The notes under the pieces were generated by a model, which searched no databases, was not told the DNA's origin, and worked only from the letters and a program-made list of their open reading frames with translations. From the NCBI GenBank assembly GCA_040386935.1, contig JAZKEQ010000030.1, positions 600 through 64,599 of the forward strand: a DNA stretch of 64,000 nt, read 5' to 3'. The position numbers and the translations under genes were made by a program. Positions 27,301 through 53,110 of this stretch are shown piece by piece (positions within the stretch are counted from its first letter, which is position 1; each line of letters starts with the position of its first letter). Source of the DNA: Bacteroidota bacterium (GTDB lineage: Bacteria > Bacteroidota > Bacteroidia > NS11-12g > UBA955).

Positions 27301-27967
27301 AATTTTGAATTTATGATTTTTTTGATTTGGAAGCTCGTTTGCTGGAAATAAGCAAGCATTTCATTTTAAACTTGTAGATTTTATTTTCCCTTTACTTTTT
27401 TGCATTGCGAAAAAAGTAACAAAAACGCTAGCCTCAGGATGATATTTTTGAGTTTTCTACACATGATTGGAGCCCACAACAAAAAAACTCGCCCAACGCA
27501 CATCCCACTCTGCGCTCAAGCAGCTTTTGTTTTGCCCCCTGCCGCACAATCCTATGCTCCCTCTGCATTCGCTCCAACCACGTTTGAAAATTAACAAAAA
27601 TCTCATTATGAGGCATCACACACCCGAGCACTTATAGGTAATTTAATGGCATGGAATCCTAACTAAATTTTTGATAAAAATGCTATTTCCATTTCAGCAA
27701 AAACTAGTCATTATCTTATAACAACAAATTTTAAATCATTTTGAAAAAATGTTGTTATGAAAACGAATCTGCGGGTTGAGTCCACGAAAGGTGTGAAATT
27801 TCTCTTGGCCGGCCCGAGTGGAGGTTGGCTGCGCGATAGGCCATTGAAATTTCTCTTTCGTGGTGGGCTTTTTGCTCCACTTTTTGCCCAAACAAAAAGT
27901 GGAAAAAGAAATAATTTATAACCAAACTAGAGAAAAAAATCTACTAAGCAATAAAAGGGGCTATGAG

Positions 27968-28133
27968 TTTTACTTTCGTTCAATTTAGCGATATCCTGTC
28001 CTGATTTTCATCAGGATGACTCGTCAGGATGACTCTATCCGTTTTGTTTGTTGTGGTTTAGGGAAGTGTCTTTTTGTTTGTGAATCCTCTTGCGTTGGGT
28101 TTAATAACCTATTAACTCAATAACCAATAACTT
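27968..28133 (+). repeat. partial, diverged copy A of the R1 dispersed repeat plus an AATAACC-type 8-bp periodic tract
   Basis: TACTTTCGTTCAATTTAGCGATATCCTG...TCAGGATGAC matches copies B and C, and the hairpin region is duplicated. The tract TAATAACC/TATTAACT/CAATAACC/AATAACTT lies at 28102-28133. Confidence 0.7.
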
Positions 28134-28276
28134 TATTTCCAAGCTGTCAGAGCGAAGAATGAATGAACCCGTAAGTCAATATAACCGATAGCGATTACAT
28201 TTCCAAATGTCATATTTTCAAAATGAATGACACGTTTTTCAATTAAAATCAGTCTAGTAAAAAGGAGGGTATTGAT

Positions 28277-29593
28277 ATGAACAGTTTTACTATTATCGGG
28301 GCCTGCTTTACTATAGTATCTGCGGCCGATGCACAGTCACTAAATTTTAACCTGCCTTCAGACAAACATTTTCCGGCCTTTTGTCTGCACCACACGTCCG
28401 TTGCCATTATGCCATCATTGAATTATCAATTGAATGCAAAAGGGCAGCTCTTTAATTCGGAGTTAATGCAAAACACGCAAACTTCCGATTTTTTAAAAGT
28501 ATTGTTATATGAAGGTCGCCATGTCAATTACCTGTCATTTAATATTACTTCTAATATTTTTGATATCAGAAAAAATCACAACAAGTACGAACTGGGTTTT
28601 AGTATGGGTATTAAAAGTGGTGGCATTTTAAAAACACTGGTAGATATTCCCGATTTAACACCCACTGAGTCGGGGCCACTGAAACTCACCAGCGATCCCG
28701 GTTTTAAAATTGCCATGAACGGTTATGCGGCCATGTCTTATTCCTTTTCATACTTAAGAAAAATAAGCAACCGCAATTTGCAAACCGTTGGATTTAGAAC
28801 CGAATTGCTTACGGGACTAAATGCTGTTAAAGGTAAAATTCAAACACGAGGGCTTACGGTTGTAGACACCAATACCGTGAATTTAACGGTGGAGAGCAAA
28901 GGGTATATTGCCCGTTCCAAAAAACGCCTGCACAGAGATGAGTTGATACCGGTGTACAACAACCCCGGTTTAGCTGTTAGTTATGGCATGCAATGGCAAT
29001 TGAGTCACAATCGGCAACTATCGTTCAATGTTATGAATCTCGGTTTTATTTATTTCAACAAAACCAACCGCTATCTGGCGCATCGTTTCGATACACTGAA
29101 TATTCGCTATGGCTCTGATGTGTATGGTCGCTACTGCGATAGCATACAAGCCTATGCCGATAAAGGGGGCAGTGTGGTATATTGCCTGCCGTTCGACTTG
29201 CGTATGGATTACGAATACAACATTAAACCAGGACATAATTTAATCATGATGGCGCAATACAATCCCATTTTATCGAATGTGGCAATGTCGTTAACCTTCT
29301 GCAGAAAAATAGCATCGTACAGAATTAGTCCATCGCTGAGTCTAGTAAATTTTAATACGGTGTTAACGGGATTAGGTGTTACAAAAACCGGCCGTCACAT
29401 CAGTTGGGGCATAGGGATGAAGTATCTGAAACCAAGTATGACGCTGTATCAACAGACCATCAATGAAAATGTGATTTTAAAAAATAACAACAATTGGCAA
29501 ACCACTTGTTATGTGTATTATCACATTATATCAGACACCAAACGACTGACGAGTAAGAAACATAAATTGGTGAGGACTTTTATTAGGAACTAA
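28277..29593 (+). CDS. hypothetical protein (possibly secreted or outer-membrane)
   Basis: 438 aa with a short hydrophobic N-terminus ending AADAQ and Gly/Tyr/Asn-rich, beta-strand-like composition. I recognise no motif. Confidence 0.4.
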   Translation: MNSFTIIGACFTIVSAADAQSLNFNLPSDKHFPAFCLHHTSVAIMPSLNYQLNAKGQLFNSELMQNTQTSDFLKVLLYEGRHVNYLSFNITSNIFDIRKNHNKYELGFSMGIKSGGILKTLVDIPDLTPTESGPLKLTSDPGFKIAMNGYAAMSYSFSYLRKISNRNLQTVGFRTELLTGLNAVKGKIQTRGLTVVDTNTVNLTVESKGYIARSKKRLHRDELIPVYNNPGLAVSYGMQWQLSHNRQLSFNVMNLGFIYFNKTNRYLAHRFDTLNIRYGSDVYGRYCDSIQAYADKGGSVVYCLPFDLRMDYEYNIKPGHNLIMMAQYNPILSNVAMSLTFCRKIASYRISPSLSLVNFNTVLTGLGVTKTGRHISWGIGMKYLKPSMTLYQQTINENVILKNNNNWQTTCYVYYHIISDTKRLTSKKHKLVRTFIRN

Positions 29594-29887
29594 TGATAAT
29601 TTGATAATTGGTTGATTTGGTGATTTGGTAATTTTTTTTCGTCCGTTTTTTTTGTAGAGGTTGATTAATGGTTTAATTTGGTTAAGGAACGTAATGGCAC
29701 AACCCTTAAGCACAACAAATAAGACGGGCCTGTCATCCTGACGAAAGTCAGGATACCGCTAAATTGAACGAGAGTATTGCTAAATCAATATTAAGTCGTC
29801 AAAAAAAGTATTTGATAACTAACAACGAACCCCATCAACAAATCATCAAATCACCAAATCACCAAATCATCAAATTTTCAAATCAAC
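29594..29887 (-). repeat. MITE-like composite element, copy B (R1 core 29641-29812 flanked by inverted 8-bp periodic tracts)
   Basis: The reverse complement of 29641-29812 aligns by eye with 49343-49512 at roughly nine positions in ten. The tracts 29594-29633 (TGRTRATT units) and 29834-29887 (ATCAnCAA units) are reverse complements of each other in type. Confidence 0.8.
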
Positions 29888-48439: not shown

Positions 48440-49204
48440 ATGAATCAGCAAAAAATAGCCCTCATTACAGGTGCTACTTCCGGAATAGGAAGAGCCTGTG
48501 CGGAATTACTCGCCAAAAACGATTATAATTTGATATTGGTCGGCCGAAGAACAGAAAGGTTGCACGCAGAAAAGGATTTCCTCGAAAAAAATAATTCCAT
48601 TAAAGTACATGTAATTACTTTGGATGTAAGAGACCGCGCAGCAGTTGAACAGGCTTTTGCATCAATACCGGCAGAGTGGCAAGCCATTGATGTGTTGATC
48701 AACAATGCCGGATTGGCCATGGGTTTATCATCAGTTGAAAACGGCAATGTCGACCATTGGGATACCATGATTGATACCAATTTAAAAGGCTTATTGTACG
48801 TTACTAAAAATATATTGCCCTACATGATAGCGCGTAATGCCGGTCATATTGTGAATGTAGGCAGCATAGCGGGCAAGGAAGTGTATGCCAATGGCAATGT
48901 GTATTGTGCCACTAAGCACGCTGTAGATGCATTGAACCGCAGCATGCGCCTTGACTTAAGTAAATATCCCATCAAAGTTTCGGCCATTCATCCCGGAGCA
49001 GTAGAAACGGAATTTTCTATTGTGCGTTTTGAAGGCGATGAGGCAAGAGCGAAAGTGGTATACGAAGGATTTGAAAATCTAGTGGCCAATGATGTAGCAG
49101 AAGGGGTGTGGTTCATGCTCAACCGTCCACCACATGTTAACATCAATGAAATGACGATTATGCCGACTGCCCAGCCTATGGCAGGAGTGATTAATAGGAA
49201 GTAA
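48440..49204 (+). CDS. SDR-family NAD(P)-dependent oxidoreductase
   Basis: It has TGATSGIG, NNAG and YCATK motifs. Confidence 0.9.
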   Translation: MNQQKIALITGATSGIGRACAELLAKNDYNLILVGRRTERLHAEKDFLEKNNSIKVHVITLDVRDRAAVEQAFASIPAEWQAIDVLINNAGLAMGLSSVENGNVDHWDTMIDTNLKGLLYVTKNILPYMIARNAGHIVNVGSIAGKEVYANGNVYCATKHAVDALNRSMRLDLSKYPIKVSAIHPGAVETEFSIVRFEGDEARAKVVYEGFENLVANDVAEGVWFMLNRPPHVNINEMTIMPTAQPMAGVINRK

Positions 49205-49236
49205 ATATTTTAGATTTTTTATTTTTGTTTTTCTTA

Positions 49237-49285
49237 TAGTCCCGACCCTTCGGGATGATTTTTTGATGGTCTCGACTCTTCGGGA
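49237..49285. repeat. two REP-like hairpins (AGTCCCGACCCTTCGGGAT type)
   Basis: At 49237-49255, TCCCGA-CCCT-TCGGGA forms a 6-bp stem. A second copy at 49267-49285 has one stem mismatch. Confidence 0.8.
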
Positions 49286-49288
49286 TGA

Positions 49289-49560
49289 TGGTTATTAGGT
49301 TATTGAGTTAATGGTTACTTATAGCAACTCCGATACTTAGGAACTAGTTTTTTATCACAGGACTTATATTGTTTTAGTAATACTTTCGTTCAATTTAGTG
49401 GTATCCTGACTTTCGTCAGGATGACAGGTCCGTCTTATTTGTTGTGCTTAAGAGTTGTGCCAATACGTTCCTTAACCAAATGAAAACATTAATCAACCTC
49501 TACAAAAAAAACTGACAGTTAAATTATCTAATCATCAAATCACCAAATCATCAAATTCCT
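49289..49560 (+). repeat. MITE-like composite element, copy C (R1 core 49343-49512 flanked by 8-bp periodic tracts)
   Basis: The tract GGTTATTA/GGTTATTG/AGTTAATG/GTTACTTA lies at 49289-49320. The core contains the hairpin ATCCTGAC-TTTC-GTCAGGAT. The tract AATCATCA/AATCACCA/AATCATCA lies at about 49529-49556. Confidence 0.8.
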
Positions 49561-49814
49561 ATTCCCTTATTCCCAACCCCTTTCCCCAAAATTAAATTAT
49601 TATTTTTTATCAGTAGGCTTTAATATATTTGTTTTTGAAACTTTCGGTATTGCATATAGTGAAAAAAAATGGGAGGACTCAAGCAATTTTGTTTGTGCTG
49701 TTTTTTCTTTGTTTGATTTCTTGTACAAGGAGATTTAAAAAAATGTAGAATGCTTATAATACAACAAAAAAAGCTGAACAGCTTAAAAATCAAACTATAA
49801 ATACAAATTAAAAA

Positions 49815-52947: not shown

Positions 52948-52966
52948 ATCCCAAAGGGTCGGGACT
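52948..52966. repeat. REP-like hairpin copy (opposite orientation)
   Basis: ATCCCAAAGGGTCGGGACT is the reverse complement of the AGTCCCGACCCTTTGGGAT type. Confidence 0.75.
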
Positions 52967-53091: not shown

Positions 53092-53110
53092 ATCCCGAAT
53101 GGTCGGGACT
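53092..53110. repeat. REP-like hairpin copy
   Basis: ATCCCGAATGGTCGGGACT has stems TCCCGA and TCGGGA. It is followed by the period-8 tract TAACCCAA/TAACCAAT/AACCTAAT at 53116-53147. Confidence 0.75.

Follow-up and report, generated by a model that had tools for sequence, protein, structure and literature searches.

The window analysed here, a 64,000-nt stretch of a Bacteroidota genome, contains a gene for a 438-aa protein lying between two facing copies, A (+) and B (-), of a repeat designated R1, with a third copy, C, elsewhere in the same stretch. This arrangement raises the question of what kind of element R1 is and whether it brought the gene with it. Our analysis suggests that R1 is probably a non-coding repeat with a REP-type hairpin, restricted to one uncultured species of Chitinophagaceae, which forms a module of intergenic mosaic DNA similar to NIMEs and BIMEs. 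R1 is best read as such a module, the MITE and the composite cassette being poorer readings.

Copies and distribution of R1

The three copies of R1 that the first-pass annotation had placed in the window were all recovered. Copies B (29641-29791, - strand) and C (49366-49516, + strand) are 93% complementary over 151 nt and 86% identical over 227 nt, while copy A (27945-28085, + strand; C30:28544-28684) is a diverged member with 82% identity over 50 nt and a covariance model E-value of 4e-18. The cores of B and C lie at 29672-29802 (-) and 49355-49485 (+), respectively. Alignment showed that copy A has a 5-nt insertion before the hairpin and that GTCAGGATGACT is duplicated in tandem there.

A genome-wide search with the covariance model identified six copies, A to F, on contigs C30, C20, C76 and C1 (E = 4e-27 to 4e-16). 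The core comprises ~105-130 nt, with ~225 nt common to the young pair B/C, and ~80 nt of conserved sequence lie outside the hairpin. Identity is graded, from 93% for B/C to ~80% for D and E and lower values for A and F. All six copies are intergenic, mostly located after gene 3' ends, and their neighbours are unrelated genes. The first-pass annotation had named two observations that would refute a mobile repeat, confinement to the window with no insertion polymorphism and membership in the leader or terminator of specific gene families; since R1 extends to other contigs and does not accompany one gene family, neither applies.

The reading frames starting from the ATG of GGATGAC were considered as a possible small protein within R1. 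They differ among the copies, that of D being frameshifted and that of E stopping early, so that R1 is non-coding. An orientation bias was also considered, as five of the six copies appeared to share the direction of the upstream gene. However, B and F lie between convergent genes, and the four sites with a single gene direction comprise three sense copies and one antisense copy (D). The apparent bias is thus reduced to three of four informative cases, and no real bias remains.

With the covariance model, R1 was detected in none of the 32 genomes of the genus, and it was likewise missing from 124 other genomes of the family, each species being represented by one genome. BLAST searches of 40 relatives returned nothing apart from one chance match within a coding region, and a pattern scan for the R1 3' flank gave no matches in metagenome contigs.

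The hairpin, its REP class and a possible RNA role

The perfect hairpin described for copies B and C was found at 29735-29754 and 49403-49422, with the stem-loop ATCCTGAC-TTTC-GTCAGGAT. On the + strand, copy B reads ATCCTGAC-GAAA-GTCAGGAT with the tag TGTC in front, and the corresponding hairpin of copy A is TCCTGAT-TTTC-ATCAGGA (27999-28016, +). All seven pairs are kept in all six copies, including two both-sided changes; for instance, a C-G to T-A change in the stem of copy A leaves the pairing intact. At the level of sequence, these compensatory changes show that the paired state has been kept, by selection or by copying fidelity.

Read on the GAAA strand, the R1 hairpin consists of (T/A/G)GTC, an 8-bp stem starting with AT and a 4-nt loop, and the consensus unit is NGTC + ATCCTGAC + GAAA + GTCAGGAT + ACC. 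This layout is close to the CGTC-1 class of REPs, which takes in those of Sphingomonas/Sphingobium, dRS3 of Neisseria and RPE-6 of Rickettsia (Di Nocera, De Gregorio and Rocco 2013, PMC3733652). CGTC-1 units are defined by an unpaired tag CGTC (with TGTC and CCTC variants), a stem of 8 bp with complementary A-T residues at its first two pairs, a loop of 4 nt and an unpaired 3-nt tail that is mostly CCA; they occur in many units, mostly as head-to-head dimers (PMC3733652). R1 shares the GTC-ending tag, the 8-bp stem beginning A-T, T-A, the 4-nt loop and the short tail, as well as an intergenic position mostly past gene 3' ends, and neither has a known dedicated transposase. Stems of the CGTC-1 kind are formed by ATCCTGAC/GTCAGGAT in B, C and D and by ATTCTGAC/GTCAGAAT in F, while in A and E the first pair is disturbed by a 5-nt insertion. 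The loop is GAAA in all copies but F, which has GAAT. Furthermore, the R1 stem-loop is identical, letter for letter, to the dominant Sphingomonas REP variant.

The likeness is incomplete. The GTC of the tag is constant, whereas its first base varies, with the TGTC of CGTC-1 in three of the six copies (B, C and E), AGTC in A and D and GGTC in F. The tails are ACC in B, C and D, CAG in A and E and CTC in F, compared with CCA in the Sphingomonas copies. Unlike CGTC-1 REPs, the R1 hairpin is a single unit within ~105-130 nt of other conserved sequence and never a head-to-head dimer; a genome-wide scan found no dimers, and beyond the six R1 copies only one solo hairpin (C8:9342-9361). This amounts to six or seven copies as against tens to thousands. 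The 22-mer TCCTGACTTTCGTCAGGATGAC was present at more than 120 loci in Sphingomonas, other Alphaproteobacteria, Bacteroidota, Patescibacteria and Gammaproteobacteria; a literature search for the hairpin sequence itself gave no matches. One Bacteroidetes locus and one Sphingomonas locus had suggested a connection with small GIY-YIG nuclease genes, which was rejected after a motif scan located such a gene at one of 120 hairpin loci.

Instead of selfish or neutral DNA, a conserved hairpin of this kind could also belong to a functional RNA element, which would be either the gene of a small RNA or a structure in the 3'-UTR or terminator that is under selection at every site. We consider this unlikely. 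The survival of the hairpin through two compensatory changes would fit such a role, as would the placement of every copy in intergenic DNA, mostly behind 3' ends, and a role as RNA has been proposed for REPs (PMC3733652). A possible second hairpin (TTAAGGG...TCCTTAA), with two invariant G-U pairs and pairing on the + orientation only, points the same way, but it is a weak candidate: 84% of cells are paired, a both-sided change occurs once, and F has no counterpart. Against an RNA element, Rfam gave no match at gathering score in the window or at any of the six R1 loci, with chance-level matches only at E <= 10. The hairpin is not followed by a U-tract, single copies do not fold with unusual stability (z = -0.7 to -2.4), and a Bacteroidetes-type -7 box (TAnnTTTG) occurs at no consistent position in or beside the copies. 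Moreover, the orientation to flanking genes is inconsistent, and it is difficult to see why a single species would require such an RNA at six unrelated loci when the rest of the family does without it. A promoter or leader role for R1 was rejected as well, because three of the six copies have no fitting downstream gene in either sense and no TAnnTTTG box is conserved.

Mosaic sites, 8-bp-period tracts and the DUF5723 gene

The matching sites of related species were compared with those carrying R1. In loci L256-L258 of related genomes, the genes around copies A and B follow the order Hsp20 - DUF5723 - thioesterase - ABC - UDG, with short spacers free of repeats and without R1. The Hsp20-DUF5723 spacer, 187-257 nt long in these loci, measures 1050 nt here, and most of the enlarged spacer is filled by a set of repeats named R2 (modules a-d; 27370-27915, +), of which module d (27755-27915) is a structured, multi-copy element found across the genus. 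On the other side of the DUF5723 gene, the thioesterase gene that separates it from the ABC gene in all relatives examined is absent from this whole genome. At copy E, the mosaic takes the place of a 361-aa porin gene located between kup and map in relatives. The SDR site of copy C is nearly empty in G021, contains a Y1 transposase gene in G009, G010 and G041, non-coding repeats in G007 and a 5.5-kb insert in G043. The comparison shows, from gene order and sequence in these species, that the places taken by R1-bearing mosaics are short spacers, genes or other inserts in relatives; judged in the same way, genes that relatives keep have been replaced by the mosaic at sites B and E. The absence of R1 from the matching sites of related species, together with the six copies on four contigs and their unrelated neighbours, bears out the part of the first-pass reading in which R1 is a dispersed non-coding repeat. 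A two-gene T9SS cassette gained in this genome was also observed at a REP-mosaic spot.

Besides R1, the mosaics comprise 8-bp-period tracts, the R2 modules and a second family of REP-like hairpins (AGTCCCGA-NNNN-TCGGGATK) with ~25 copies in the genome, two of which lie at 49237-49285 (+). As in NIMEs and BIMEs, several unrelated short repeat families thus occur in varying order in intergenic DNA beside variable genes, with REP-type hairpins among them (dRS3 of the NIMEs being a CGTC-1 repeat). Unlike in NIMEs and BIMEs, the other modules (8-bp tracts, AGTCCCGA hairpins and R2) are lineage-specific. The resemblance to REPINs and their RAYT genes is more distant. Hairpin repeats are spread across intergenic DNA in both cases, and Y1 (HUH) genes are present in this genome and, in relatives, at site C. 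However, R1 forms no inverted doublets and flanks no RAYT gene in this genome. Both of its Y1_Tnp genes (C2:2109-2453 and C4:21106-21444 of this genome) lie outside the window contig and have unrelated, GC-rich hairpins on their flanks, and their motifs DH[VI]H and Y...NQ..HH fit subclass 1.2, which is described as lacking an association with REPs.

The tracts beside R1 bear on a further reading, in which R1 and its flanking tracts form a MITE, a non-autonomous transposon of ~270-295 bp with the tract arrays as terminal inverted repeats and its transposase elsewhere. The first-pass annotation had drawn such an outline around both B and C, and the part concerning B stood. Copy B lies between a tract of TGATAATT / TGATTTGG units (29594-29637, +), which begins directly after the DUF5723 stop codon (distance 0) and is G/T-rich on the DUF5723 sense strand, and a second tract (29834-29887, -; AAATCAYC on the + strand, GRTGATTT in the sense of the ABC gene) at a distance of -3 from the ABC-ATPase stop codon. 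Over 44 nt (29594-29637 and 29837-29880) the two are inverted and 84% complementary, and copy B with its tracts (301 nt) folds as a single long hairpin, at -84 and -81 kcal/mol for the two strands (z = -5 and -6). This structure, the absence of R1 from the matching sites of relatives, and the same arrangement, with REP hairpins between a tract and an inverted tract, in genomes of Porphyromonadaceae and other Bacteroidota are the observations that favour a MITE. The outline did not hold for copy C, where the tract after the SDR gene (GGTTATTR, 49288-49320, +) and the tract on the right (AAATCAYC, 49521-49557, +) differ in unit type and do not pair, and the fold of 49205-49575 is not significant (z = -0.5) and keeps the right-hand tract single-stranded; the MITE-like outline is therefore confined to B. 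Copy A has a YAATAACC tract on its right (28102-28133, +), and neither A nor F has a pair. Matched arms are found in one of the six copies only.

Additionally, the tracts have a distribution of their own. The genome contains 43 of them, and 15 begin within 10 nt of a stop codon, compared with 5.4 expected, the G/T-rich strand always being the sense strand. The same tract pairs also flank unrelated cores, at C20:17133-17427, C77:9018-9260 and C20:12750-13034. At site C, the GGTTATTR tract is also present 3' of the SDR stop codon in G021, G009 and G010, all without R1, and it is therefore older than R1 at that site. The supposed terminal inverted repeats are generic, genome-wide 8-bp tracts and not part of R1, and two convergent genes with the same tract type at their stop codons can be enough to produce a MITE-like outline. 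No target-site duplication was identified in the R1 junctions and the matching loci of other species that were read. No ends specific to R1 were seen, and a search for Y1_Tnp genes in the genome gave no transposase sharing the R1 hairpin. Long-hairpin MITEs such as Correia, ERIC, RUP and BOX resemble copy B in its ~290 bp, its position between convergent genes and its one long stem, but the arms here are generic tracts at stop codons, missing in five of six copies, and no target duplication was identified, nor, in the Y1_Tnp search, a parent insertion sequence. Taken with these differences, a MITE is quite improbable.

The 438-aa gene itself (28277-29593, +), which encodes a signal peptide, had been taken for an orphan. 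It matches Pfam family DUF5723 (PF18990, E = 7e-16) and has homologues of 34-50% identity between the Hsp20 and thioesterase/ABC genes in L256-L258. It can hardly be the cargo of a composite cassette with A and B as its ends: although A and B face each other over one gene that is patchy in the genus (2 of 40 relatives at E <= 1e-5), its homologues keep the Hsp20-to-UDG order without R1, G007 and G043 have a DUF5723 gene adjoining the ABC gene, A and B come from different R1 subfamilies (~82% alike over 50 nt), copy A lies within an 800-nt block of other repeats, and copy B replaced the thioesterase gene. The presence of the gene between the same neighbours in R1-free genomes indicates that it was there first, as a resident.

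Probable spread of R1 and what the mosaics mark

Returning to R1 as a module of intergenic mosaics, the graded identities of its copies suggest that it spread over time, and we infer that this occurred by copy-and-paste within this lineage. A likely route would be hairpin-dependent transfer or recombination between mosaics, sometimes accompanied by the loss of a neighbouring gene. Once inserted, R1 would probably be transcribed within 3' untranslated RNA, where its hairpin, together with the ~40-bp tract stem at B, could end or stabilise transcripts, as proposed for REPs generally.

Copy B may also be an instance of an undescribed, Bacteroidota-wide element, in which CGTC-type REP hairpins lie between inverted 8-nt-period arrays, often starting at stop codons, and which would produce a very long stem, either in single-stranded DNA or at the 3' end of an mRNA. 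This proposal is tentative and rather doubtful. A layout with REP dimers between inverted 8-bp tracts, built from quite different repeat units, was observed in Porphyromonadaceae and other Bacteroidota, and a Patescibacteria contig carries a one-sided version. If such an element exists, the identical 22-nt hairpin across phyla would reflect recognition by a common host factor or enzyme.

By itself, R1 matters little, being a low-copy, species-specific addition to the CGTC REP class, a class barely described in Bacteroidota. Less ordinary are the tracts of 8-nt period beginning at stop codons and module d, the structured 160-nt repeat just upstream. In this genus, REP-containing mosaics mark places of gene gain, loss and replacement, as exemplified by the lost thioesterase and porin genes, the gained T9SS cassette and the Y1 transposase gene found at the same site in relatives.

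Copies and range of the R1 repeat

R1, a repeat of ~170 bp, is a real dispersed repeat but an ordinary one, low in copy number and species-specific; it is one module of mosaic intergenic DNA and carries a CGTC-type REP hairpin. BLAST and a covariance model built from all copies identified six copies (A-F) in the 3.4-Mb, 81-contig assembly, in which the window spans C30:600-64599. The three copies that the first-pass annotation had placed in the window were recovered, namely copies B (29641-29791, minus strand) and C (49366-49516, plus strand) through their complementarity and the diverged copy A (27945-28085) by BLAST (82% over 50 nt) and the covariance model (E = 4e-18). Copies B and C, described earlier as about nine-tenths identical, match at 93% over 151 nt, and BLAST extended this match to 227 nt at 86%. 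The genome-wide search for copy number revealed a dispersed distribution, with copy D at C20:26667-26798 (plus), copy E at C76:9584-9718 (minus) and copy F at C1:106212-106323 (minus). Identities are graded, falling to ~80% over 105-110 nt for C-D and C-E, while BLAST matches of copies A and F are restricted to the central 45-70 nt. These two copies have a 45-nt 5'-side extension in common.

Neither 32 further species of the genus nor 124 genomes sampled across 15 genera of the family yielded a covariance-model hit. A BLAST search of 40 relatives returned a single match, within a coding region, which was taken as chance, and metagenome contigs searched with a pattern of the R1 3' flank gave no matches.

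The hairpin and its REP superfamily

The perfect hairpin ATCCTGAC-TTTC-GTCAGGAT, previously noted in copies B and C with GAAA on the other strand, was located at 29735-29754 and 49403-49422. None of the six copies has lost any of the seven stem pairs; copy A has one C-G to T-A exchange and copy F a different one. Genome-wide, the motif is confined to R1 and otherwise at background level, except for one solo hairpin at C8:9342-9361. This seventh stem copy, ATCCTGAC-GTAA-GTCAGGAT, has no R1 sequence around it; here too a stop codon and a G/T-rich 8-bp tract precede the hairpin, and GCCCC...GGGGC hairpins adjoin it.

At least 120 loci of the species-representative genome collection contain the 22-mer TCCTGACTTTCGTCAGGATGAC. 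Among the matches listed, Sphingomonas forms the majority, with two facing copies ~59 nt apart (cCGTCATCCTGACGAAAGTCAGGATCCAGAG...CTCTGGATCCTGACTTTCGTCAGGATGACgg); Maricaulis, Sphingobium, Pragia, Oceanisphaera, Alteromonas, several Bacteroidota, an Ignavibacteriaceae, a Patescibacteria, a Fibrobacter and a Streptosporangium record are also among them. Nine viral contigs contain it as well. Partner hairpins at these loci vary in stem and loop and keep a constant frame, GTCATCC...GGAT. The TCCTGACTTTCGTCAGGATGAC hairpin belongs to the CGTC-tagged REP superfamily of Di Nocera et al. (PMC3733652), which includes Neisseria dRS3 and Rickettsia RPE-6. Its members are characterized by a CGTC (often TGTC) tag, an 8-9 bp stem opening with A-T pairs, a 4-5 nt loop, a tail near CCA and mainly head-to-head dimers, and they have no known dedicated transposase (PMC3733652). 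On the GAAA strand, the R1 tag reads TGTC (B, C, E), AGTC (A, D) or GGTC (F), followed by ATCCTGAC, GAAA, GTCAGGAT and then ACC. From this reading of tag, stem, loop and tail, the R1 hairpin fits CGTC-1 partially: stem and loop are alike and tag and tail agree in part, whereas copy number and dimer organisation differ.

A second REP-like family, GTTACTGCAAGTCCCGA-NNNN-TCGGGATT, was observed in ~25 copies, commonly clustered, including window positions 49237-49285, 52948-52966 and 53092-53110, as well as C11:7780-7973 and C73:9037-9332. A conserved G-T wobble in its stem can pair on just one of the two strands.

All six R1 copies are intergenic. Copies B and F lie between convergent genes, copies A, C and E run in the direction of the upstream gene, and D runs against both of its neighbours, so that no clear orientation rule emerges from the six copies. 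R1 is non-coding, since short reading frames beginning within the hairpin are not alike across the aligned copies. Rfam contained no family matching R1, single-copy folds showed nothing unusual, no Bacteroidetes-type -7 box stands at a constant position relative to the copies, and no U-tract follows the hairpin. A candidate second hairpin, TTAAGGG...TCCTTAA, shows pairing in 84% of cells, only one compensatory change and, on the plus orientation, two G-U pairs that never vary; copy F has lost it, and it is treated as unproven. At most, R1, together with the long tract stem at copy B, would belong to 3' untranslated RNA, the usual proposal for REP elements (PMC3733652).

Regarding a cognate transposase elsewhere in the genome, the search for Y1_Tnp genes identified two (C2:2109-2453 and C4:21106-21444), both flanked by GC-rich GCCCC...GGGGC-type hairpins and neither by R1. 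Their motifs, DH[VI]H and Y...NQ..HH, fit subclass 1.2 of Quentin et al., which is described as low in copy number and as generally lacking the terminal hairpins that typify IS200 (PMC6006769). A link between the hairpin and small GIY-YIG genes was only apparent and did not hold.

The DUF5723 locus and other R1 sites

The 438-aa gene between copies A and B (28277-29593) had been described as an orphan and as the content of a composite cassette. Its product matches Pfam DUF5723 (E = 7e-16), and homologues are 34-50% identical. Contigs of three homologues carry the order Hsp20, DUF5723, thioesterase (opposite strand), ABC ATPase and UDG, with a 187-257 nt Hsp20-DUF5723 spacer and an 8-nt DUF5723-thioesterase gap. 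DUF5723 adjoins the ABC gene in two related genomes (G007, G043), and three others (G041, G010, G009) lack it and have the order Hsp20, thioesterase, ABC. Given this gene order and the 35-50% identity to syntenic counterparts against 84-91% for neighbours (flanking ABC ATPase), the gene is a fast-evolving resident of the locus. Orphan status and a role as cargo between cassette arms A and B were both ruled out. The protein, secreted or outer-membrane, is either evolving unusually fast or being replaced.

In the window, the Hsp20-DUF5723 spacer measures 1050 nt and holds repeat set R2 (27370-27915), copy A and a tract. The thioesterase position is now occupied by the copy B mosaic (29594-29887). 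The lost gene, which encodes a 138-aa 4HBT thioesterase and is located after the ABC-ATPase gene, is kept by related species and has no homologue anywhere in this genome.

At site E (C76:9380-9778 in this genome), kup and map are separated in the closest relatives by a 361-aa porin-like gene, which is gone here. A tract, copy E and another tract, ~290 nt in all, stand in its place and end just ahead of the conserved map promoter box TAAATTTG. Site C in the window comprises, in this order, two REP-like hairpins, copy C between two tracts, and a two-gene T9SS cassette. In G021 a tract and short spacer alone separate the SDR gene from the gene that follows; the counterpart of site C in G007 is 1.2 kb of non-coding repeats, and in G043 a 5.5-kb insert. 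In G009, G010 and G041 (L252, L253 and L255), the ortholog of the SDR gene (window 48440-49204) is followed by an IS200/RAYT-like, subclass 1.2-type Y1 transposase gene that has hairpins of its own, CAACCACTTCGTGGTTG and AATCCCTCTGGGATT; G007 has hairpin repeats only. These comparisons at sites E and C place R1-bearing mosaics where the genus gains and loses DNA.

Tracts and module d

The MITE-like outline proposed earlier, with inverted 8-bp-period tracts, stood at copy B and failed at copy C. Around copy B, the tracts (29594-29637 and 29837-29880) are 84% complementary, and the 301 nt of copy plus tracts form a single long hairpin on both strands (z = -5 and -6), whereas the copy C tracts, built from different types of unit, show no pairing with each other (z = -0.5). 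Tandem Repeats Finder (period 8, at least 3.4 units) identified 43 tracts in the genome, mostly AAATCAYC, YAATAACC or complements, including 29594-29637, 29834-29887, 49288-49320, 49521-49557 and 28102-28133 in the window. Inverted pairs also bracket sequence unrelated to R1 (C20:17133-17427, C77:9018-9260, C77:1407-1548, C20:12750-13034). In 15 of the 43, at most 10 nt separate the tract start from a facing stop codon, against 5.4 +- 2.3 (maximum 12) in 200 trials of random intergenic placement, and all 15 are G/T-rich on the sense strand of that gene. Copy B obeys this rule, one tract lying directly 3' of the DUF5723 stop and the other abutting the ABC-ATPase stop; these genes are convergent, and the tracts are therefore mutually inverted. 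The left tract of site C also lies 3' of the SDR stop codon in G021, G009 and G010, all without R1. Because of the unrelated cores, the stop-codon rule and the SDR tract in genomes without R1, the tracts are a separate, older feature and not ends of R1, and a MITE with its own ends was rejected. In A/C-rich orientation, tracts often stand just ahead of the next start codon (C6:13307, C1:47881, C31:16203).

The layout of copy B recurs, built from units such as AACCGGYA, on two Porphyromonadaceae contigs and in another Bacteroidetes genome. In these Bacteroidota the order is stop codon (terminator in L107), 8-bp tract (TGCCGGTT type), head-to-head CGTC-type REP dimer and inverted tract; a Patescibacteria contig is one-sided, with the right-hand tract only. 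The approximate loci, L080:190-340, L107:2990-3330 (minus), L117:1490-1660 (minus) and L119:6040-6200, share the layout of copy B but have unrelated unit sequences.

R2 (modules a-d) makes up most of the enlarged Hsp20-DUF5723 spacer. Its copies on C26, C73 and C1 are 90-98% identical in shuffled order, and at C1:106212-106711 R2 directly adjoins copy F. Module d, a structured repeat of ~160 nt, has five copies in the genome, at window 27755-27915 (plus), C73:14907-15059, C1:106514-106711, C1:117714-117905 and C26:24433-24585. It consists of CUGCGGGUUGA-GUCCACGAAWGG, a long variable stem, CWUUCGUGGUGGGCUUUUU and a hairpin, CCACUUUUUG-CCCAAA-CAAAAAGUGG. In an alignment of nine copies from ~8 genomes, the central stem and last hairpin change in sequence and keep their pairing. 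Full or partial matches (1-13 each) occur in 11 of the 24 other species of the genus searched and in none of 16 genomes from other genera of the order, and Rfam gave no match. Module d is a candidate multi-copy RNA or MITE family, and it looks more interesting than R1.
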